Source: a virus (Duplodnaviria; Caudoviricetes). Taken from it: a DNA stretch of 64,000 nucleotides. Each line of letters starts with the position of its first letter. Position 1 is the stretch's first letter. The position numbers and the translations under genes are program-made. Below are positions 1 through 10,436 of this stretch, piece after piece. The DNA lies in IMG/VR virus record IMGVR_UViG_3300049563_000052, positions 1 to 64,000 of that record; one strand, given 5' to 3'. The notes under the pieces are model-generated. The model was not told where the DNA came from, ran no database searches, and worked only from the letters and a program-made list of their open reading frames with translations.

Positions 1-77
1 GATGCCCGACCCGGCGCCGCCGCGCCGCTAGGGTCGGCCCCGTCCGGGGTGGACCAACACACCCCAGGGGGAACATC

Positions 78-356
78 ATGCGGATTCGGACTCTGGCCGC
101 GGCGGGCGCGATGGGCGGCCTGCTCATCGCCGGGATGGCCGGGCTGGCCGGCACCGCGAACGCGGCCACCGGCGGCGGCTGCCCGTCCGGCGGTGACTGG
201 ACGCTGGCCTCCACCGCGATCGTCATCGACGCGCTGGACAACGGCAACTTTGCCGACCAGAACGGGGACGGCCTGGCCTGCTTCAAGGTGAACAAGGGGC
301 AGACCGCCAAGCACGACGGCGTGGCGTCGTTCACCTGGAAGGACAACACGAACTGA
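78..356 (+). CDS. Small secreted protein with DxNxDGxxC Ca-binding-like loop
   Basis: Signal peptide ending ANA, two Cys, DQNGDGLAC; purine-rich RBS-like run upstream. Confidence 0.75.
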   Translation: MRIRTLAAAGAMGGLLIAGMAGLAGTANAATGGGCPSGGDWTLASTAIVIDALDNGNFADQNGDGLACFKVNKGQTAKHDGVASFTWKDNTN

Positions 357-526
357 TGAAGACCGTCCTCGCCGCCATCACCGCGGCACTGCTCGTCCTC
401 CTCGGCTCCGGGGTCGCCAACGCCGATCCCGACTTCGGGCCGGGCAACAGCCAGAAGGGTCCACACGACCCGGGCGCGCTGTGCCACCCGCCGGGGCAGA
501 CCGTCGACTTCCCCGCCTGCAAGTAG
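356..526 (+). CDS. 56-aa secreted peptide with two Cys (not in ORF track)
   Basis: TGATG coupling; MKTVLAAITAALLVLLGSGVANA-DPDFGPGNSQKGPHDPGALCHPPGQTVDFPACK. Confidence 0.7.
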   Translation: MKTVLAAITAALLVLLGSGVANADPDFGPGNSQKGPHDPGALCHPPGQTVDFPACK

Positions 527-530
527 GACC

Positions 531-547
531 GTCAACCCGGTCTTGAC
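531..547. repeat. GTCAA-N7-TTGAC motif, copy 1 (others at 10878, 17276, 36941)
   Basis: gtcaa cccggtc ttgac. Confidence 0.7.
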
Positions 548-550
548 ACG

Positions 551-582
551 GAACGGCCCCCCGCCGCGACGGGGGGCCGTTC
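551..582. terminator. Bidirectional hairpin terminator
   Basis: 13-bp stem gaacggccccccg/cggggggccgttc between convergent genes. Confidence 0.7.
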
Positions 583-598
583 TGCTGCACGGGCGCGC

Positions 599-1312
599 TC
601 AGCCGGGTGGGGCCGCCGCCAACCCGCCGACGGGGCGGGCGGGGCGAGGGTTCCGGGCCCGGCCCGCCAGCAGGGCCCAGATGATGACGATCTGCTGGCA
701 GGCGAGGAAGCACAGCAGCAGGTTGTTCAGCCACGTCCACGGCACCGGCAGGATCGCGAGCACCGTGAGCACCGCGGCGAACGCGATGGCGAACGTGACC
801 ACCTCACCGATCGGGGCGTGCCGCCGCAGCGCCTGGAGGATGAACGGCACCGACGCGATGGTGTCTACCAGGATGGCGGCGATCACCACGACCAGCCCGG
901 CCGCTTCCGGCTCAGCCGGGCCGATCCAGCCGAAGAACAGCGGCACATAGATCACGATCCCGATGCCGCACAGAATCAGCGACCAGCGGTCGATCGGCTC
1001 GATGATCAGCGGTTCGTGTCGGATCAACGCCCACACGGCGATGATCAGCGGCCCGGTGGACAGGGCGGCCTTGGCGATCCACGACTCCGGGGCGGCCCCG
1101 CCGAATGCCTGCCCGATGGTGGCCATCGAGCCGACGATGAACCACGTGCCCCACATGCCCGGTTTCGGGTGCGTGCGGCGCGGATCGGTGAACCGGTGCC
1201 GTAACGGCCACACGGTCGGGATGATGCACAACAAGAAGATCCAACTTGTCACCGTGGACACGACGATGACCGTGTGGGCAGACAGCGGGCCGAGCAGCGT
1301 GAGGGTTTTCAT
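599..1312 (-). CDS. Multi-pass membrane protein, PQ-loop/SWEET-like (paralogue of 1718-2680)
   Basis: About 7 hydrophobic segments; P..WGTW, ID.W.LI.C and D.IA.VP motifs shared with the paralogue; ATGA coupling. Confidence 0.65.
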   Translation of the reverse strand: MKTLTLLGPLSAHTVIVVSTVTSWIFLLCIIPTVWPLRHRFTDPRRTHPKPGMWGTWFIVGSMATIGQAFGGAAPESWIAKAALSTGPLIIAVWALIRHEPLIIEPIDRWSLILCGIGIVIYVPLFFGWIGPAEPEAAGLVVVIAAILVDTIASVPFILQALRRHAPIGEVVTFAIAFAAVLTVLAILPVPWTWLNNLLLCFLACQQIVIIWALLAGRARNPRPARPVGGLAAAPPG

Positions 1313-1647
1313 GGCCGGACCACGGGCCGCCGCGCGAGCACCGCGCCGCGCAGCACGTCGAACCCCTCTTGCAGGGTGTCGTATTCGACGTCGACCTCCC
1401 ACGAGATCGTGTCGCGCAGCGGGTAGTCCTTCCACAGCGTCTCGAACCAATCCCGGGCGGCGTTGATCCCCATGTCGTCCGGGATGGGAACGATCACGTT
1501 CCCGCCGGTCTGCACGTACGGGCGCACCCGCGTGAACACTCCGGTGCGTTCCCGTTCCTCCAACCACGCCTGCGCGGCGTCGATCTGCTCAAGGGTCACT
1601 CTGAACGGTTCGTCGGGGTGCGGTCGGACCGTGACGTGCAGGTGCAT
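1309..1647 (-). CDS. Small alpha/beta protein, muconolactone-isomerase/DUF3303-like pattern
   Basis: W..G..Y..GG..I..L...YPL..WEV pattern; own RBS and palindrome-linked promoter. Confidence 0.45.
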   Translation of the reverse strand: MHLHVTVRPHPDEPFRVTLEQIDAAQAWLEERERTGVFTRVRPYVQTGGNVIVPIPDDMGINAARDWFETLWKDYPLRDTISWEVDVEYDTLQEGFDVLRGAVLARRPVVRP

Positions 1648-1699
1648 CGGGAAACTCCCTGGTGGTGGGGGCACTTCGGGACCCGAGCAACGTAGCAGG

Positions 1700-1718
1700 T
1701 AGCGCGCCGGGCGCACAT
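1700..1718. promoter_or_regulatory. 19-bp palindrome, variant copy
   Basis: tagcgcgcc g ggcgcacat upstream of the 1647 start. Confidence 0.65.
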
Positions 1719-2680
1719 CACCGGCGGGGGGCGACCGCCGGGTGGGCCCCGTTGGCTGCCGCCTGCTGCGGGGACAGCGGTGGCGGCGGGATCAGGTTGA
1801 CCCGCTCGCGGTCGAGCCAGCCTTTCCAGTGCCCGGCCGCGTAGGTCTCCTCCATCAGCCGCACCAGCCGGGTCGGGGACGCGTCCCAGTCGGCGATGTC
1901 CGGCGGCACCAACTCGGCCAGCTCCGCGGCGTGCGGGCTGCGCCACCACGGCGGCCTGCGCCGTTCGGTCGTGAACTCCGTCCACAACTCCGGGGCCGGG
2001 CGCAGCGGCCGATCCGGGCGCAGCCGCAACGGGTCGTCGTCGACCACCGCGGCGACGTCCGCGAGCGGGCGCCGCACCCAGATCGTCACCGACATGACCA
2101 CGCCCAGCGCGAGCAGGTACGCCGGATAGAGGATCTGCCACACATCCATCGGGGCGGCCAGGATCGTGCACAGCGCCGACACGCCCACCGTGACGAACGG
2201 CCGCACCGACATCGGCCGCTGCGGGGACGGCCACAGCGCCATCGTCACCGCCGGGATGGCCGCGATCCCGTCCGTGATCACGGTCAGCACCAGCGCCGGT
2301 TTCCCGTCCACGGCCAGCAGCAGCGCCAGCGACGCCAGCGTGCCGATGCCGCACGCGATGTCCACCCGCCGCTGCCACGGCACCCCCGGTTCGGCGTCTC
2401 GGTAGCGCAGCAGCGCCCCGCCCGCGTACGCCGCCGCCACCACCGTGATCACCACCAGCAGCATGGCCGCCGCGGTCCACCCGCCCAGCTGCACCTGCGA
2501 CACCAGCGCGATCACCCCGAGCACCGTCCACATGCACCACGTCACCGGGGAGGCGCCCTCCCGGCCGCGCCACGTGTTCACGATGGGGTCGATGTTGCCG
2601 ACGGCCATCACCGTCGCCCCGATCCACGGCAGCCCGACCAGCAGCCAGCCCAGGCCGAGCGCCTCCAGCCACGGCCCCAT
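1718..2680 (-). CDS. Multi-pass membrane protein, PQ-loop/SWEET-like, with soluble C-terminal tail
   Basis: SPVTWCMW, VDIACG, TDGIAAIP, LYPAYL; TGATG coupling to the upstream gene. Confidence 0.65.
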   Translation of the reverse strand: MGPWLEALGLGWLLVGLPWIGATVMAVGNIDPIVNTWRGREGASPVTWCMWTVLGVIALVSQVQLGGWTAAAMLLVVITVVAAAYAGGALLRYRDAEPGVPWQRRVDIACGIGTLASLALLLAVDGKPALVLTVITDGIAAIPAVTMALWPSPQRPMSVRPFVTVGVSALCTILAAPMDVWQILYPAYLLALGVVMSVTIWVRRPLADVAAVVDDDPLRLRPDRPLRPAPELWTEFTTERRRPPWWRSPHAAELAELVPPDIADWDASPTRLVRLMEETYAAGHWKGWLDRERVNLIPPPPLSPQQAAANGAHPAVAPRR

Positions 2681-3567
2681 CAGGCGTGCACCGCCGCGAT
2701 CGGGGTGTCCGGGTGGTTGACGTTGTGGGTGTGGATGAGCCGCCGATGCAGCCGGTGCGCCATCCGCAGCCGCGGACTCTCCGCCGGGGTGTCCAGCAGC
2801 CGCTCGATCGCCGCCGCGCGCAGCAGCAGCAGATCGTCGTACGGGTCCCGCTCGGCGGGCGGGGTGGCGGCGGCGGCCAGGATCCCGTCCCGCAGCCACA
2901 GCGCGTGCCGGTCCGGGCGTGGCTCCCCGCCGACCCGGCTGCGCGGGCGGCCGTGGACCTGCCAGTGCAGCGCCGCCGCCAACGCCTCCGGCAGGCTGTA
3001 CCACGCCAGCGCCTCCGCCGGGGCAGTGACCAGCTGCGGCGCAGTACGGAACGCCGCCCACGCGGCCCGGATCGCGGCCATCTCCTCCCACGTCGACGAA
3101 CTGGTCATCCCGATCGGCACCCCGCACGCCTCCATCCGCTCGTCCAACACGGCGTCGCCGGGCAGCGGGAACCGCAGGTAGCGCCACCGCCAGGCGTCGC
3201 AGAACGCCAACCACCAGAACCGGTACACCCCGGCCACCTGCCCGGGGGTGCGCTCGGGGGCGCCGGTGTGCCCGCCGGGCAGCGGCCACCCGGCCACTGT
3301 GTGCACCATCCGCGGCGACAGCACCAGCTCCCAGTCGATGCGCAGCCGCCCGGCGCGGGCCCGGTCCTGCAACAACGCCACCAACGCGATCATGTCGCAC
3401 AGCTGGGCGTACTGGCGGCCCGCCGACGCCACGAACGTCTGCGCGTACAGCCGCAGCATGAGCATGCCGAACCGGCTGCGCCGCACCACCGGGTCGGTGG
3501 TGGCGTCGAGCACCTTCGCCAACGGGTAGCCGACCGGGGCCGTCGCCGGGGCGGTCGGCGCGGTCAT
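2680..3567 (-). CDS. Hypothetical helical protein with His-rich C-terminus
   Basis: Coupled at both ends; HRLHRRLIHTHNVNH. Confidence 0.7.
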   Translation of the reverse strand: MTAPTAPATAPVGYPLAKVLDATTDPVVRRSRFGMLMLRLYAQTFVASAGRQYAQLCDMIALVALLQDRARAGRLRIDWELVLSPRMVHTVAGWPLPGGHTGAPERTPGQVAGVYRFWWLAFCDAWRWRYLRFPLPGDAVLDERMEACGVPIGMTSSSTWEEMAAIRAAWAAFRTAPQLVTAPAEALAWYSLPEALAAALHWQVHGRPRSRVGGEPRPDRHALWLRDGILAAAATPPAERDPYDDLLLLRAAAIERLLDTPAESPRLRMAHRLHRRLIHTHNVNHPDTPIAAVHA

Positions 3568-4700
3568 GCCTGAACCGCCCCGTATTGCGTATACGGCCGG
3601 TACAGCTCGACGCGGGCCGCGCGCCGCCGCCGTAGCCAGACCACCGCGTTCTCCTCCGGCCGGGTCTGCACCAGCGACCGCAGGTCATGGATGGCGTGTT
3701 CGCCCATCACGGTGTGCTGCTCGATGTCGGCCAGGTCGGCCTCGAACAGCCGATCCCGGGCGTCGGCCAGGCCGGGGTGCCGCAGCGCCAGCTCGGCGTA
3801 CGGCAGCCCGCCCAGGTACCGGCCCAACAGTTCCCGGATGCGCTGGTGATGCTGCTTGTGCTCCAGGAACGCGCCGCCGGTGAGCCCCTTCGGCAGATAC
3901 GGGGGCGCCATCGTCGGGCGGACCACCTCGAGGTACAGCCGACCGGGGAGCACCGCCGACCACAGCATCGCCGCGGTGAACCCGCGCACCTGGAGCGCCG
4001 CGGTGCGCAGGTGCGCGGCGGCGCGGTCTTCGAACCCGACCTCGCGGAGACAGTTCGCGGCGGCCTCGACCGACCCGGCGGCCATCATGTTGAGGCACAG
4101 GTAGGCGTGGTGGGCGACCACCCAGCGCTGCTCCGGGCCGCCGTCGGGGAGGTAGTCGAGCAGCGGTTGCGGATCAACCGGCTCCGGTGCGACGGCGGGC
4201 GGGCGCGGCGGCAGCGGGGTGTCGGCCAGTCCGGCGATGATCGTGCGCAGCCCGGCGAGCAGGGCCACGATCTGGTTGCCGTCGACGGCGGCGTATTCGA
4301 GCTCGGCGAGCGACCAGCGGGCGATGAGCACCGCGTACAGCGCCATCGACGTCGACCCCATCGTGTCCGAGTGCCGCACCCCGAAGTAGCTGTAGATCAG
4401 CTTCGAGGGCGGCATGGTGTCGGTCGGCAGGGCTCCGTCGGCGAGGGCTTCGGCGAGCCTGCCGAGCGCGGTCACCCCGTCGGGGAGCCGGGAGCGCAGC
4501 GCCCGGGTGTCGGACTCCCCGGCGGCGTCGATGAGCCGATCCAGGGCGGCGAGCGCGGCAGCGGCGGGTTTCACCGCGGCCTCGGGGCGGCGCCACGGCA
4601 GCACCCGGTACCGGGTGTCGGGGAGCACCACGAGCGGCACCCCGGGCGCGTACCGGTGCGGGTCGTCGAGCGCGGACGTGGGCAGCAGGGCGGTGGTCAT
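3564..4700 (-). CDS. Heme-dependent aromatic oxygenase-like protein (SfmD / LmbB2 tyrosine hydroxylase, TDO superfamily)
   Basis: YSYFGVR, RWVVAHH, LYLEVVRPTMAPP..GLTG..LEH, IEQH..RSL recall the SfmD/LmbB2 motif order; RBS GGAAAGGA. Confidence 0.6.
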   Translation of the reverse strand: MTTALLPTSALDDPHRYAPGVPLVVLPDTRYRVLPWRRPEAAVKPAAAALAALDRLIDAAGESDTRALRSRLPDGVTALGRLAEALADGALPTDTMPPSKLIYSYFGVRHSDTMGSTSMALYAVLIARWSLAELEYAAVDGNQIVALLAGLRTIIAGLADTPLPPRPPAVAPEPVDPQPLLDYLPDGGPEQRWVVAHHAYLCLNMMAAGSVEAAANCLREVGFEDRAAAHLRTAALQVRGFTAAMLWSAVLPGRLYLEVVRPTMAPPYLPKGLTGGAFLEHKQHHQRIRELLGRYLGGLPYAELALRHPGLADARDRLFEADLADIEQHTVMGEHAIHDLRSLVQTRPEENAVVWLRRRRAARVELYRPYTQYGAVQA

Positions 4701-4749
4701 CGTGGTGGGGTCCTTTCCGAGACGGGGCGGGGCGGATGATCGGCGGGCG

Positions 4750-4995
4750 TCACCCGACACCGACCCGGCTGGTAGTGACCACGGCCCCGGGCGCCAGGTG
4801 GTACAGCGCCACACAGGCGACGGCGGTCATGTTGGCCCGGGACCCGTTCGGGCCGATCACCACGACCCGCAGCGGGTCGTCGGGGTCGGCGTCGATCCGC
4901 ACGGCGATCCCGGTCGGATACACCGGCACCCGCCGCCCCTTCATGATTCGTTCGCCGGTCGGGATGTCGGGCCGGTTGTCGTAGACGCCGCTCAT
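4750..4995 (-). CDS. Hypothetical protein
   Basis: AGGAGG RBS; heads the oxygenase operon. Confidence 0.6.
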   Translation of the reverse strand: MSGVYDNRPDIPTGERIMKGRRVPVYPTGIAVRIDADPDDPLRVVVIGPNGSRANMTAVACVALYHLAPGAVVTTSRVGVG

Positions 4996-5051
4996 CGGCG
5001 CCTCCTCACCGTTTCGGGGACAGCGGGGACCGTGAGCGGGGTGTGGGGCAT
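4992..5051 (-). CDS. Putative 19-aa leader peptide MPHTPLTVPAVPETVRRRR
   Basis: ATGA coupling to 4995; CCCCACCAC motif upstream. Confidence 0.35.
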   Translation of the reverse strand: MPHTPLTVPAVPETVRRRR

Positions 5052-5204
5052 GGCATCGCTTCCGTGTGGTGGGGTCGTGCTTCGGGTGGGGTTGATGCGC
5101 GCCTGGAGCACGCTAGCCGATGTCGCCGAGGCGTGTCTCGAATGGGGTTACCGCCCGGTCGGGTCCGGCCCCACGGCGCGCCCGGCGCGCCTGCGCTACG
5201 GTGG

Positions 5205-5490
5205 GCAGGCGGAACCTTCTCCCGCCTGGTGCTCCGTCGCGTCGGACACATCCAGAGCCGAGGGGTCCGCCCAGGGGACCGCCTCCCGCCTGCATGCCGG
5301 CGAAGCACAGCAGGCGCCGAGGCGGTCCCCGCCTCACGGATAGGGGTGCGGGCCGCTCGCCAACTCGCCCAGCCCGGCCACCCACTCCCGGTGCCGGCGT
5401 TCCTCCCGCCGCCACCACACCGACCACGCCACCACGGCGGCCACCGAGACCGCGGCACCGCCTATGGCGGCCCATCCCAGCCATCGCACG
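5205..5490 (+). ncRNA. Candidate structured ncRNA
   Basis: Palindrome core at 5175-5191 followed by TACGGT; hairpins at 5206-5228 and 5274-5330; no credible ORF. Confidence 0.35.
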
Positions 5491-5496
5491 GCCGGG

Positions 5497-5709
5497 TCAC
5501 TTCTTCTTGCGCTTGAGGACCCGGTTGGCCTTGGCGTGGATCCGGTCCCGCGTCGCCTTACTGATCTTGCCGCGTTTCATCTGCTGGGTCGCGCGGGCCT
5601 TCGCGTTCGCCGCGTGCGCCCGGTCGTGCATCGGGTACTTGCGTTTGCCCGGCTGCCCGAACTGGGACTTCCGCAGCTTCTTCTTCCGGGCTGCGCGCAG
5701 CTTCGCCAT
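5497..5709 (-). CDS. Small very basic protein (DUF6582-like)
   Basis: L.KSQFG.P..RKYPMHDRAHA.NA.AR. Confidence 0.65.
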   Translation of the reverse strand: MAKLRAARKKKLRKSQFGQPGKRKYPMHDRAHAANAKARATQQMKRGKISKATRDRIHAKANRVLKRKKK

Positions 5710-5721
5710 GCCTGCTCCCCC

Positions 5722-6330
5722 TCACCCGCGGTGCGCCACGTCGACCACCAACATGCCGATGTGCCGATGCCCCGGGCCGGGCGGCAACACGAACACCCGG
5801 AACGGGCGCGGCTCCGCGACCCCCAGCCCGATCGACGTCACCGACTCGAACGAGCCCGCAAAGATCACCGACCGGAACTCCACCCACGATGTCAGCTTCC
5901 GCGTGGGGATCAGCTGGTCCCCGGCCTGCGGGCCCCCGGCCCGGTGCGACGCCGGGTTGCCCACCACGACCAGCAGCCGGGCCTGACCCGGCACGGTGAG
6001 CACGTCACCCTTCGGGTCGCTGGTGACCTCGTTGACGTAGCGGACGTTGAAGCCGCCCACCGGCCCCACCGTGTCGATCACCAGCCGGTCATAGCAGGGG
6101 TCGTGACGGCCCACCCGAATCTGATCGATGACGGACTGCGACAGCGCCATGCCGCCGCCCGCGGTGGGCGGGGACGTCTTGGCGGCCGAGGTGAACCCGG
6201 GCGGGCAGTTCGCCACCGCGGCCGGGCCGACCGGGCCGGGCATCCCATCGCCGCGGGCGATGTTTGCCGTAGCGAAGATGATGAACACCACCGCGGCGAG
6301 GATCGCCACCAGTGTGCGCGGAAACGTCAT
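5722..6330 (-). CDS. Secreted actinobacterial AMIN-like domain protein
   Basis: Signal peptide; IRVGRHDPCYDRLVID, GSFES, RPFRVF, LVVDVAH. Confidence 0.7.
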   Translation of the reverse strand: MTFPRTLVAILAAVVFIIFATANIARGDGMPGPVGPAAVANCPPGFTSAAKTSPPTAGGGMALSQSVIDQIRVGRHDPCYDRLVIDTVGPVGGFNVRYVNEVTSDPKGDVLTVPGQARLLVVVGNPASHRAGGPQAGDQLIPTRKLTSWVEFRSVIFAGSFESVTSIGLGVAEPRPFRVFVLPPGPGHRHIGMLVVDVAHRG

Positions 6331-6401
6331 CGCCCTGCCCCCCGGAGTCGCTGCGTGCGGGCGCGGCGTGGGGCGGGCCCGGTCTGCGCCCGCAGCGTAA
6401 A

Positions 6402-6430
6402 CGACCCCCGCGGTGAAACCGCGGGGGTCG
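6402..6430 (-). terminator. Hairpin terminator
   Basis: cgacccccgcggt-gaa-accgcgggggtcg downstream of the 6467 stop. Confidence 0.55.
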
Positions 6431-6466
6431 CTCCACTCGGAGGGGGTGTGTCCAGGTTAGAGGTGC

Positions 6467-6748
6467 TTACGCCGTGCGCCGGGCCGGGTCGCCGGACAGC
6501 GGCACCAGCTGCTCCCCGTCCGGGTGCAGCAGCCACCACCGGTCCCCGCCCGCGTTGCGCTCGACGATGCGCACCTCGCAGCCGTAGCGGCGGAACAGCC
6601 GCGCGAAGTGCCGGGCGGCCCGCTCGTCGCGGTGCCAGTCCCAGCCCGGGAACGGGTGCTTGGGGTGCTTGTACCGGATCGCCCACCCGGGCTGACCGGT
6701 GCTGGTGTCGGTGCCGCGCTTCGGGCGGCGGGCGGTCGCGGCGCTCAT
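6467..6748 (-). CDS. Hypothetical protein
   Basis: ATGA coupling; codon pattern. Confidence 0.6.
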   Translation of the reverse strand: MSAATARRPKRGTDTSTGQPGWAIRYKHPKHPFPGWDWHRDERAARHFARLFRRYGCEVRIVERNAGGDRWWLLHPDGEQLVPLSGDPARRTA

Positions 6749-7092
6749 GACTCGCCGACCTTCGGGCTCGGCCCGGCGGCCAACACGGCATCGATCCACG
6801 CCTGCGCGACCTCACGCATGTCCACCACCTCGTACCGGGTGGAGCCGTCGGTGAGCTGCACCGTCAGGGCCAGCCACCCGTTGCCGACCCCGGCCCCGCA
6901 GGTCAGGTCGAACGAATCCAACTCGCTGTCCGGGTCGGTGCTCTCCCCGGCCAGCCAGCCGACGCGGAACCCGCACGGCAGTGTGGACTCGACGCGCCGC
7001 ACCGGCAGCCCCAACGGGTACCGCGGCATGATCGGGTCCAGCGTGATGCGGCGCCCGTCGGTGTGGGCCTCGGTGGTGATCTCGCCTTCCAT
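6745..7092 (-). CDS. Hypothetical protein
   Basis: AAGGAG RBS. Confidence 0.65.
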   Translation of the reverse strand: MEGEITTEAHTDGRRITLDPIMPRYPLGLPVRRVESTLPCGFRVGWLAGESTDPDSELDSFDLTCGAGVGNGWLALTVQLTDGSTRYEVVDMREVAQAWIDAVLAAGPSPKVGES

Positions 7093-7507: not shown

Positions 7508-8743
7508 TCAGATGTTGGCGACGTCCAGCACTCGCAGCGCGGACATGTCCAGCTCGAACCCCCGGTCAGCCGACGGGACGGTCTGGCTGAACGCGGTGAC
7601 CGCGTTGACCACGCCGCCGCGGGTGGCCTGCCCGCCGCGCAGGAACATGTCCAAGATCCCGTCCTGCTCGCGGTCGGACCAGGACAGCTGCTTGCCGACG
7701 ACCTGCACGACCTCCTGCGCGGGCCGGTTCAGCTCCGCGGTGGCCTTGCCCTCGATGTCCGCGACGGACTTGGTCAGGTAGTCCTCGGACAGGAACGCCT
7801 TGACCGCGTCCTTGGTCCGGGACATGACCAGGTCCAGCGCCTTCTGCTGGGTTTCGGCGGACCAGGTGATCTGGCCCTCGTCGAGCTTGCCGCCCAGGTG
7901 CACCGCGCGGAACTTGCCCTCGTCGCGGGTCATGCCGTTGGTGCAGGCGAGCACCACGATCTCCGGGTAGATGGTGAACGAGCCCCAGCCGACCTCGGAG
8001 TTGGTGATGCGCAGCCCGGCGGACACGATGTCCCCGACCTGCGGCGGGCGGGCGCCGGGGGCGTCGTTGGGGTCGCCGCCGCGGGCGCTGTTGAGCCGGG
8101 CGTTGGTGAACGGGTTGCGGTAGCCGTCGAGCAGCCGCGGCGCGGCGGCGGTGATGGCCGGGCAGTCCAGCCGCACGTGCATCCGGGCCTCGGTCAGGTC
8201 CGCGGCGCGCACCCGCGCCTGGATCCCGGAGTCGTTGATGCCCTTGAGGACCTGCATGAGCACGTCGTAGTTGTCGATGGCCTTGTAGCTGTCGGACAGG
8301 AACGCCCGCCCGATGCCCTCGCCGCCTGCCTCGTCGCGGAAGGTGCGGAACAGGAACTTGCGCGGGTCGCCGGGGATGACGCGCTCGGGGTCGCCGAAGC
8401 CGTCGTAGCCGTGCAGCCACCCGTTGACGGTCTGGTCGTACATGTCGATGCGCTGGGCGCGCAGGCGGCGCATGTAGGCGCGGGGCACGTCGAGCCGGCC
8501 CGCGATCTGGTCGTCCATGACCTGCGTCGGGCGGTAGCGGCCGATGCGGCTGGTGACGCCGGAGTCGGTCATGTCCTGCTCGGCGTCGTCGACGTGCAGC
8601 ACGCCGTCCACCGAGTGGATCCGGCGGGCGGGGGCGACGAAGTCATGCACGGCCGCCCGCTGCTCGCGGAGCAGGGTCACGAGGTCTTCGAGGCTGGCGT
8701 TGCGTGCGTAGTCGGAGCTGGCGGCGGCGGTGGGGGTTGACAT
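7508..8743 (-). CDS. DUF932/DUF945-family phage/plasmid protein
   Basis: RAFLSDSYKAIDN, GLRITNSEVG, LACTNGM; GGAGG RBS. Confidence 0.75.
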   Translation of the reverse strand: MSTPTAAASSDYARNASLEDLVTLLREQRAAVHDFVAPARRIHSVDGVLHVDDAEQDMTDSGVTSRIGRYRPTQVMDDQIAGRLDVPRAYMRRLRAQRIDMYDQTVNGWLHGYDGFGDPERVIPGDPRKFLFRTFRDEAGGEGIGRAFLSDSYKAIDNYDVLMQVLKGINDSGIQARVRAADLTEARMHVRLDCPAITAAAPRLLDGYRNPFTNARLNSARGGDPNDAPGARPPQVGDIVSAGLRITNSEVGWGSFTIYPEIVVLACTNGMTRDEGKFRAVHLGGKLDEGQITWSAETQQKALDLVMSRTKDAVKAFLSEDYLTKSVADIEGKATAELNRPAQEVVQVVGKQLSWSDREQDGILDMFLRGGQATRGGVVNAVTAFSQTVPSADRGFELDMSALRVLDVANI

Positions 8744-8880: not shown

Positions 8881-9186
8881 TCAACCGTCCGAAGTGGACG
8901 CCGCGTCCGGGTCCAGGTCATTCGCCCACTCGGCGATCGACACCTCTTGCGCGCACGCCCAGCGCTCCATCTGCCCCGCCCAGAACTCCAGATAGAGCCC
9001 CATCCAGCGCAGCGCCACCGGATCCAGGTCGAACCGCTGCGCGCTGCCCCGCACCCCCGCCGACAACCCCTCCAACACCGCCGCCACCCGCGGCATCGGG
9101 GAGCTGCCCTCCGGAATCTCCCAATGCCGGGCCAGGTCCTTGATCCGGGCCGCGTTCTCTTCGATCTCCCGCTCGCGCTCGTCCAC
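8881..9186 (-). CDS. Hypothetical protein, probably leaderless
   Basis: TACGCT 6 nt before GTG. Confidence 0.6.
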   Translation of the reverse strand: MDEREREIEENAARIKDLARHWEIPEGSSPMPRVAAVLEGLSAGVRGSAQRFDLDPVALRWMGLYLEFWAGQMERWACAQEVSIAEWANDLDPDAASTSDG

Positions 9187-9201
9187 CCCGCAAGCGTATC
9201 C

Positions 9202-9220
9202 CCGCGCGCCGGGCGCGCAT
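9202..9220. promoter_or_regulatory. 19-bp palindrome between divergent -10-like boxes
   Basis: TACGCT leftward, TACGGT rightward. Confidence 0.75.
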
Positions 9221-9261
9221 GCTACGGTCGGGCTCCCACCACGAAACCGGGAGACACCGTC

Positions 9262-9555
9262 ATGGACACCTGGACGCCGCCCGCGGACGCGCTCCGCACC
9301 CACGCCGGAGACCTCAAGCACATCTGCAACGGCGACAACCCGGCCGGGCTGCCGTTCGGCAAGCTCGCCCCCGAAGGCACCTGCCCGCGCTGCGACGAGC
9401 GCCGCCACGGCGCCCCGCCCCGTCCCCGCTTCGGCGGCAGGCTCACCGCCGCCCAGCGCGACGCCCAGGCATGCGCCGACATCGCCGCGCACCACGCGTC
9501 CGCCCGGCACCGCTCCGGCGGCTGCGGCCTCGTCTGCACGTTCGGGGACTGGTGA
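9262..9555 (+). CDS. Cys/His-rich phage protein ending VCTFGDW
   Basis: CPRC, HxxxxRH..CTFGDW; RBS GGGAG. Confidence 0.65.
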   Translation: MDTWTPPADALRTHAGDLKHICNGDNPAGLPFGKLAPEGTCPRCDERRHGAPPRPRFGGRLTAAQRDAQACADIAAHHASARHRSGGCGLVCTFGDW

Positions 9556-10436
9556 GCATGAGCCACGACACCCTCGAAGCCGGGTTCGAGCCCACCGAGC
9601 TCGTCACCGCCATCCGCGCCAGCGCCGCCAAGCTCGACGCCCCGCCGACCCGCCGAGACATCACCGCGGACTGGTGGGACCGGCACCGCCCGACCCGGCG
9701 CGGCGTCGCGATCGGCTGCATCCTCGCGCTGCTCATCGTCATCGGGCTCGCCGCCGCCGCACTGTCCTTCGCGTCCATCGCCGGGCTCGCCATCCAATGC
9801 GGCATCCCGCCGGAGCTGGCCTGGCTGCTGCCCATCGTCATCGACGCCGGAGTCGTCGCGGGCACCATCGTGTGGCTGTCCCGGCGGCTGTTCCCCAACG
9901 AGGACGCGCGCCGCCTCGCCGCCGGGTACACGGTGAGCCTGCTCGTCGTGTCCATCGCCGCGAACGTCACCAACCACGTCCTCGCCGTCGAACATCTGTC
10001 CGCGTCCCTGTGGGTCATCATCCCGGTGTCCGCGATCGCGCCCGCGACCGTGTTCGTGATCGTGCACCTCGCGGTGACCGCGCTGCGCCCGGCGCGTCTC
10101 CCCGTCGCGGACCGCGGACACGAGGACAGTGCGAACACGGGAGCAGAGGACAGCGACACCCACGGGGACGCGGACGCGGACACGCACGAGAGGGACGCGG
10201 ACATGGGCGCCGACACGGACGCGGACGGCTACACCGCGCGGGTCCGCGCGGACGCCGCCGCCGCCGGGATCGAGCTGCCGCCCGCCCCGCCCGGCGAAAT
10301 CCGCAGCGACCGGCGCAAGCGACTCGCTCGCGAACGCAAGCGAGTCCAGCGCGCGATCGCCGCGCTCGACGCCACGCTCGTGGACGCCGCCCGCCGGGGC
10401 AGTCAGGCGCCGGACGACGTCCTCGCCGGGGGCTGA
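9552..10436 (+). CDS. DUF2637 / Spd-like plasmid-spread membrane protein
   Basis: Four TM segments; LSFASIAGLA..G..LAWLLPIVIDAG; SIAANVTNH. Confidence 0.7.
   Translation: MSMSHDTLEAGFEPTELVTAIRASAAKLDAPPTRRDITADWWDRHRPTRRGVAIGCILALLIVIGLAAAALSFASIAGLAIQCGIPPELAWLLPIVIDAGVVAGTIVWLSRRLFPNEDARRLAAGYTVSLLVVSIAANVTNHVLAVEHLSASLWVIIPVSAIAPATVFVIVHLAVTALRPARLPVADRGHEDSANTGAEDSDTHGDADADTHERDADMGADTDADGYTARVRADAAAAGIELPPAPPGEIRSDRRKRLARERKRVQRAIAALDATLVDAARRGSQAPDDVLAGG

Follow-up and report, generated by a model that had tools for sequence, protein, structure and literature searches.

What would a phage do with a gene for oxidising aromatic amino acids, and is such a gene the phage's own? This question is raised by six neighbouring genes in the Caudoviricetes record IMGVR_UViG_3300049563_000052, one of which encodes a predicted heme-dependent aromatic oxygenase (HDAO). 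The stretch of DNA analysed here, called the window throughout, has 64,000 nucleotides and forms the start of an IMG/VR virus record of 97,019 bp that is linear, without end repeats, and 91% complete according to CheckV. Genes for portal, prohead protease and major capsid protein were found at 45-49 kb of the window, and a GH25 lysin, YqaJ/RecT and RusA are encoded in the record outside the 64-kb window. On balance we lean slightly towards reading the six genes as a cargo operon of an uncultured high-GC soil actinophage, whose proteins would modify an aromatic amino acid and transport either it or the resulting product through the membrane.

Gene organisation of the operon

Because the GC content of the window is 72%, raw lists of open reading frames (ORFs) mislead, and genes were called instead from a frame plot of GC content at third codon positions (GC3) and with a GC3-based caller. 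By this framing the long raw ORFs at 1596-2672, at 1718-3688 and at 599-1567 (taken whole) were rejected as lying in the wrong frame or being over-extended. Six co-directional minus-strand genes were called at 599-4995, with GC3 values of 0.88-0.97, and a candidate leader ORF precedes them:

4992-5051, minus strand: candidate leader ORF of 19 codons, its stop overlapping the p81 start (ATGA)
4750-4995, minus strand: p81, first operon gene, small protein, GC3 0.91
3564-4700, minus strand: enzyme, 378 amino acids (aa), SfmD_perox/HDAO family by prediction
2680-3567, minus strand: p295, 295 aa, predicted all-helical soluble orphan
1718-2680, minus strand: memA, 320 aa, memB paralogue with seven transmembrane (TM) helices and a soluble tail of about 115 aa, from hydropathy
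1309-1647, minus strand: iso, 112 aa, soluble
599-1312, minus strand: memB, 237 aa, seven TM helices

Stop and start codons overlap at four junctions, by ATGA at leader/p81, enzyme/p295 and iso/memB and by TGATG at p295/memA, which joins p295 in this manner both to the enzyme gene before it and to memA behind it. The strong ribosome binding site of p81, GAGGAGG, sits within the leader ORF. Intergenic gaps measure 49 nt between p81 and the enzyme gene and 70 nt between memA and iso. The GC3 calls and the junctions bear out an earlier sequence-only reading of this DNA, which had described a packed, coupled minus-strand cluster with this gene order. An internal promoter that it had placed ahead of iso was not recovered: no sigma-70-like promoter was found in positions 1-7000, and the memA-iso gap carries a copy of a palindrome (described below). 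Scans of the Pfam, NCBIfam, PHROGs and PADLOC libraries gave zero matches for all six operon proteins, with a Pfam set that was without the PF27188 model.

The predicted heme enzyme

Judged by its sequence, the enzyme is a real member of the SfmD/TyrH family of HDAO. The precomputed annotation of this protein (P0001) and of all 7 relatives in a large protein collection contained PF27188 (SfmD_perox). As a single sequence searched against the PDB with phmmer, the enzyme matched SfmD (6VDP, E 1.7e-6) and TyrH (7KQR, E 0.066), and an eight-sequence profile (alignment A1) gave E-values of 2.6e-11 for 6VDP, 4.5e-6 for 7KQR and 9.7e-5 for 8R2S. The family had been proposed beforehand, as that of SfmD/LmbB2, from motifs that are indeed present in the sequence: RW..HH at residues 192-198, VRPTMAPP at 260-267, LTGGAFLEH at 273-281 and HTVMG at 329-333.

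SfmD, the 3-methyl-L-tyrosine peroxygenase of saframycin biosynthesis (6VDP), is the best solved relative, aligned over enzyme residues 185-361. Common to both proteins are RW..H, RPTM.PP, an (S/T)G motif, the proximal His (H313 in SfmD, H329 here) and an S-L motif after it. SfmD aligns, however, with only about the C-terminal half of the enzyme, the spacing of the two His is 47 residues here and about 38 in SfmD, and the SfmD gene belongs to a saframycin-type cluster whereas the gene studied here is found in a phage record. The two also differ in heme attachment. Cys317 of SfmD forms a thioether to the heme and is required for activity; His274, His313 and Cys317 are strictly conserved in SfmD homologues, and C317S is inactive (PMC8179489). 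In the profile alignment, SfmD H313-I-G-V-C317 aligns on H329-T-V-M-G333 of the enzyme, with Gly in place of the Cys and the proximal His retained, in agreement with the loss of the HxxxC Cys that the sequence-only reading had pointed out.

This substitution is a family trait. An exhaustive profile search yielded 484 family representatives at E<=1e-3, and residues were counted in the 130 full-length sequences among the best 150. The H329 column was His in 128 of 130 representatives, and the +4 position was Cys in none of the 130, being A, T, V, I, G or S instead; R192, W193, H197, R261, M264 and G275 were nearly invariant. The enzyme appears to fall within a large, uncharacterised section of the SfmD family that is without this Cys, and is predicted not to be a c-heme protein of SfmD type. 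Since H329 is kept and the thioether Cys is lost across the 130 representatives, a non-covalent b-type heme would be expected, as in LmbB2/TyrH. LmbB2, which is related to SfmD, has a b-type heme (PMC8179489). With TyrH of LmbB2 type (7KQR, 8R2S) the enzyme shares the core motifs and, by expectation, a His-ligated non-covalent b-type heme, but the match is weaker and covers residues 187-261 only. At 378 aa the enzyme exceeds TyrH (316 aa) in length, and it groups in another clade.

For the hydroxylation of tyrosines, SfmD and TyrH use either O2/ascorbate or H2O2 (PMC8179489, PMC11791213). TyrH converts tyrosine to L-3,4-dihydroxyphenylalanine (L-DOPA) using H2O2 or O2/ascorbate, and HDAO enzymes occur in aromatic natural-product pathways (PMC11791213). 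By analogy, the enzyme probably binds a b-type heme via H329 and oxygenates an amino acid of tyrosine type or possibly of tryptophan type.

In a FastTree phylogeny of the 130 sequences the enzyme fell in a clade of seven members with support 1.0 (P0001, P0007, P0008, P0014, P0016, P0009 and P0010); relatives from isolate genomes fell outside this clade, at identities of 34-36%. The gene of the clade-mate P0010 (40% identity) adjoins a tyrosine integrase and a helix-turn-helix repressor, before a run of small genes, a setting that is a typical prophage end. P0008 (48%) is encoded on a 58-kb contig (L001), where the SfmD-like gene is followed by a 293-aa multi-TM protein (9173-10054) and a DUF5131 gene. 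An iso homologue (4337-4654) is located 3.3 kb upstream of this SfmD-like gene, without memB. The 293-aa protein was considered as a homologue of p295 and rejected, as it is a different, unrelated multi-TM protein. P0016 is encoded on a 2-kb contig with no neighbouring genes. Further afield, P0011 (36%, Micromonospora) is encoded within a cluster of non-ribosomal peptide synthetase and polyketide synthase genes with a cytochrome P450 and a flavin reductase, and a homologue on a Streptomyces megaplasmid (35%) is encoded among genes for 3-deoxy-D-arabino-heptulosonate 7-phosphate synthase, a phenazine-type protein, isochorismate synthase, a cyclase and ATP-grasp proteins. The bacterial cousins of the enzyme thus belong to pathways for aromatic natural products, which is where HDAO would be expected.

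The membrane proteins memA and memB

The proteins memA and memB are paralogous, with an identity of 26% (E 2e-4). For memB there were 23 relatives with identities of 49-80%, all of them metagenomic, and an AlphaFold2 model built from a 26-row alignment showed seven TM helices (predicted local distance difference test 90, predicted template modelling score 0.84). When this model was compared with 48,161 PDB representatives by VIA-align, the highest scores were those of human cystinosin (13.1), AtSWEET13 (11.8), OsSWEET2b (10.3) and the KDEL receptor (9.8), and the next-ranked unrelated chain scored 7.1. Foldseek returned the same ranking with a TM value of 0.58 to cystinosin and weak E-values. 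The model superposes on cystinosin (7ZK1/8DKE), AtSWEET13 (5XPD), OsSWEET2b (5CTG) and the KDEL receptor (8APY) at a sequence identity of just 5-8%. Going by the model, memB is predicted to have the cystinosin/SWEET/KDEL-receptor fold in a 3+1+3 arrangement.

Both membrane proteins had been described as PQ-loop-like. This holds at the level of the fold, as modelled for memB, but not for the family models: neither memA nor memB matched PQ-loop (PF04193) or MtN3_slv (PF03083) in Pfam at E<=1. Of the PQ motif, P32 is nearly invariant and a Pro is present in the second repeat, but the next residue is Thr or Phe and the Gln is lost. ESM Atlas feature scores of 0.81-0.82 to clusters with PQ-loop or MtN3 serve as a lead only. 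Homologues of memA were found in L012 (38% over 307 aa, including the tail) and in L005 (32%), two of the loci listed below. Unlike PQ-loop, SWEET and KDEL receptor proteins, memB is always paired with the 112-aa soluble protein and memA carries its soluble tail; in each of the 11 loci whose sequence sufficed for a judgement, iso immediately preceded memB. A complex prediction for iso and memB scored 0.00 and, as it was run with no controls, has no bearing either way on binding. Several PQ-loop proteins transport amino acids, among them cystinosin and PQLC2, and this knowledge together with the fold suggests that memA and memB may transport the substrate or the product of the enzyme.

The proteins p295, iso and p81

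The protein p295 has many invariant polar residues. A "His tail" had been attributed to it; the C-terminus does have a conserved His-containing motif, YNANHPDxPI..H, but no run of His. No convincing match was obtained for p295 in fold searches (Foldseek against the PDB, VIA-align against all PDB representatives, and ESM Atlas by features and by structure) or in sequence searches (a profile against PDB sequences, and hhalign against the enzyme family). On a phage-like contig with Prim-Pol/AAA_25 and WhiB genes (P0165), a p295 homologue (55%) comes after an Rv1352-domain protein and is followed by a 259-aa protein and then a pyridoxal phosphate (PLP) decarboxylase. An Rv1352-domain protein is also encoded directly after iso-memB in L022.

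The 112-aa protein iso had been called isomerase-like, which found no sequence match in Pfam or PDB: five members had no Pfam family at E<=0.01, and a profile searched against the PDB gave only a chance-level match to CdaA (E 0.1). For p81, no match was found in Pfam, PHROG, PDB or PADLOC. A relative of 68 aa in L023 shares 51% identity over 47 aa (E 2.6e-10), and the p81 alignment (A5) showed the conserved motif VRVD.DP..P..V...G.RA.M. Genes like p81 open the cassettes of both L023 and L012.

Linkage of the operon genes in related loci

The gene orders in the window and in related loci were as follows:

Window: p81 - SfmD-like - p295 - memA, then iso - memB
L005 (soil contig): SfmD-like (75%) - p295 (81%) - memA-like (32%), with iso (36%) - memB (63%) divergent upstream
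L012: p81-like - PLP decarboxylase - 344-aa PrnB homologue - 71 aa - iso - memB - memA
L023 (1410-5487): p81-like - PLP decarboxylase - two small genes - short-chain dehydrogenase/reductase (SDR) - MoaC - iso - memB
L011, L015, L019 and L022: 212-aa protein - dATP/dGTP pyrophosphohydrolase - iso - memB

The six genes form a linked network, and two different HDAO-superfamily enzymes share one membrane unit. L005 carries five of the six operon genes in rearranged order. The 344-aa protein of L012 is a homologue of PrnB (2V7I, E 4e-16); it had been a candidate for an SfmD-like protein, which was rejected as it did not match the SfmD-like profile. In L023 the MoaC is full-length and above the NCBIfam cut-off, and the unexpected enzyme set of this locus hints at chemistry of pterin or cofactor type. 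In L011 and L022, iso-memB is located between phage genes (ERF, Amidase_2), the L011 pair, on an IMG/VR contig, having an ERF recombinase on one side and a lysin on the other. The sequence-only reading had named as evidence against itself that the genes would never co-occur elsewhere; co-occurrence was found in L005, L012, L023 and other loci.

Proposed working of the operon

In the cargo-operon reading that we favour, the heme enzyme would act in the infected or lysogenic cell and use O2 with a reductant, or H2O2, to hydroxylate or otherwise oxidise a tyrosine-type amino acid. The metabolite of this enzyme would be acted on or held by p295, the PQ-loop-like memA and memB would import the amino-acid substrate or export the product, and the repeated 19-bp palindrome would wire the operon into phage regulation. 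We infer, rather than observe, heme binding and the substrate class as well as the transport direction, the part played by p295 and what the phage would gain, and roles as signal, toxin, defence or counter-defence, or in nutrient capture, are speculation.

Several observations weigh against this reading. The TDO-like (tryptophan 2,3-dioxygenase-like) fold and the heme pocket of the enzyme are predictions from sequence alone. Two candidate heme His had been proposed for it, of which the proximal H329 stands (128/130) while the second is ambiguous between H281 and H284: HMMER sets SfmD His274 on the non-conserved H284, and only an ungapped register of TG-GAFLEH against SG-LHWRDH sets it on H281. 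The closest clade invariantly has His at this position, but 66 of the 130 representatives, and most family members beyond that clade, have Tyr. Three other contexts contain p295 without the enzyme. The recurring PLP decarboxylases resemble those for histidine and serine most closely, with scores under the equivalog cut-offs, rather than aromatic ones, so that caution is needed in assuming an aromatic amine. The operon occupies the far left end of a record that is linear and incomplete, and to its left there is no phage hallmark gene. Finally, no heme enzyme was found in most iso-memB loci (L011, L015, L019 and L022, and within the available sequence L016, L018 and L020), and in four of these (L011, L015, L019, L022) a dATP/dGTP pyrophosphohydrolase adjoins iso-memB. 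Part of the operon may therefore be a separate module; in the window, iso-memB is set off by the 70-nt gap and a palindrome of its own and could form an independent unit.

Taken to its end, this argument gives two unrelated adjacent modules with no joint pathway, one an autonomous iso-memB (e.g. for nucleoside, vitamin or cofactor uptake, or for superinfection exclusion) and the other p81-enzyme-p295-memA. The loci without heme enzyme and the gap would fit such an arrangement, as would L023, where iso-memB adjoins MoaC and SDR, and L005, where it is encoded on the strand opposite to the enzyme genes. We nevertheless consider it rather unlikely: translational coupling ties memA, which is paralogous to memB, to p295 and the enzyme; in the window, in L005 and in L012, which are independent arrangements, iso-memB stays within 1-2 genes of an HDAO enzyme and of memA; and cassettes that begin with a p81-like protein have iso-memB at their end.

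Palindrome and origin of the operon

A 19-bp palindrome, ATGCGCGCCSGGCGCGCAT, was matched 13 times in the window, where 0.24 matches would be expected, at positions 1700, 5174, 8799, 9202, 10797, 11764, 12319, 12658, 24179, 24678, 27688, 34872 and 45320, most of them intergenic and within the early and accessory region. Outside the window it was found at 83136, upstream of recE/recT, and with one mismatch at 95487, upstream of the last gene. It was absent from the related loci that were fetched. Two copies belong to the operon region:

1700-1718, unstranded: palindrome copy, 16/19, directly next to the memA stop codon (1718-1720), where the memA-iso gap begins
5174-5192, unstranded: palindrome copy, 16/19, in the region of about 280 nt upstream of the operon

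The palindrome looks like the operator of one phage regulator, with the copy at 1700 as a candidate operator or second control point. The operon is very probably phage-borne. The opposite view, that it is a fragment of a host chromosome or biosynthetic cluster joined by mis-trimming of a prophage boundary or by assembly, could draw on its location at bases 599-5051 of a linear record without end repeats or integrase, and on the bacterial enzyme relatives in biosynthetic clusters. Neither a tyrosine nor a serine recombinase was found in the record, and no terminal overlap was found between its two ends. Such an origin appears very improbable, however, given that the phage-wide palindrome occurs both within and upstream of the operon, that the GC content of the operon agrees with the remainder of the record, that related modules are located between phage genes in viral contigs, and that the clade-mate P0010 is encoded beside an integrase and a repressor on a phage-like contig. 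A scan of 185,579 species genomes, limited by its use of short peptide patterns, likewise found no relative of memB or p295.

The nearest clearly phage-type neighbours are located to the right of the operon, namely an AMIN-like domain protein (5722-6309, minus strand; PF24837, E 7e-29) and a phrog_1362 protein (7508-8743, minus strand) similar to gp67 of mycobacteriophage Myrna and to Arthrobacter phage genes. To the left, two small plus-strand ORFs at 111-356 and 356-526 have signal-peptide-like N-termini and converge on memB; neither had a family match. A perfect 12-bp inverted repeat with a 33-nt loop, GGGGACCGCCTC ... GAGGCGGTCCCC, is located at 5274-5330 (minus strand), just past the stop of a gene at 5334-5489, and could be a terminator that parts this small gene from the operon. 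At the other end of the record, the last gene (95627-97015, plus strand) encodes a 462-aa protein with an animal haem peroxidase domain (PF03098, E 1e-14), its stop 4 nt before the record end. If the genome were circular or permuted, this second heme enzyme would be near the SfmD-like operon.

Distribution and novelty

No relative of the enzyme, p295 or memB was found by tblastn in 50,697 GenBank phage records, which agrees with the claim of the sequence-only reading that no such module is known in phages. An IMG/VR scan with short peptide patterns recovered one further viral contig with iso-memB and no further contig with the enzyme or p295, and the corresponding scan of the 185,579 species genomes covered both bacteria and archaea; distant relatives can escape such patterns. 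Plasmids in PLSDB contained only distant enzyme relatives and no memB. Full-text literature searches found no report of a phage-encoded enzyme of SfmD, LmbB2 or PrnB type, and none of the papers searched described a heme-dependent aromatic oxygenase from a virus.

Dragos et al. in 2021 reportedly described biosynthetic gene clusters on phages and prophages, mostly of bacteriocin type. The operon resembles such clusters in being a set of accessory small-molecule genes outside the structural and replication modules, and it differs from them in its predicted chemistry, heme oxygenation of an aromatic amino acid, and in having no recognisable peptide precursor or immunity gene. A prophage survey covering 2,406 actinobacterial genomes did not report any cluster for a known anti-phage molecule (PMC10023795). 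What is described here is a known type of chemistry in a new, phage-borne form, combined with four uncharacterised protein families.

Possible roles in actinophage biology

Instead of serving synthesis, the operon might act in counter-defence or host take-over, the enzyme destroying or altering a host aromatic such as an anti-phage metabolite or signal, or draining an amino-acid pool, with import by the membrane proteins. Aromatic secondary metabolites of Streptomyces act as chemical defence against phages according to work cited in PMC10023795, HDAO enzymes oxidise aromatic rings (PMC11791213), and the operon has the palindrome in common with early and accessory genes. The characterised SfmD, TyrH and PrnB, however, act on free amino acids and not on polyketides or aminoglycosides (PMC8179489, PMC11791213), and the PADLOC scan gave no defence match for the operon, nor was any other defence-related match seen. 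We regard a role of this kind as unlikely.

The related loci allow a broader, tentative extension of the cargo-operon reading. Enzymes found in the cassettes comprise an SfmD-like or PrnB-like heme oxygenase, PLP decarboxylase, SDR and MoaC. It is possible, though doubtful as yet, that soil actinophages carry modular cassettes in which a p81-like first gene and iso-memB, alone or accompanied by memA, enclose an exchangeable position for amino-acid-modifying enzymes. A diffusible compound of catechol, amine or indole type would then be made by the phage and exported, or one would be imported and converted, and might serve as signal, competitor toxin or counter-defence beyond the infected cell.

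Natural-product pathways of bacteria are the known setting of heme-dependent aromatic oxygenases such as SfmD, TyrH, PrnB and MarE, and the presence of two HDAO-superfamily members beside the same membrane proteins points to a recurring phage strategy centred on aromatic amino-acid chemistry. The large Cys-less clade of the SfmD family identified here should use b-type heme and may offer compact candidate biocatalysts of L-DOPA type, and the operon provides a testable setting for four uncharacterised families (p81, p295, iso and memB/memA). If the modular cassettes are real, a virus would for the first time be credited with heme-dependent aromatic oxygenase chemistry, and a new transporter family would be defined. 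If the product is exported, phages would be the makers of a novel type of extracellular molecule in soil communities of Streptomyces type, in which anti-phage metabolites and chemical warfare are of importance.

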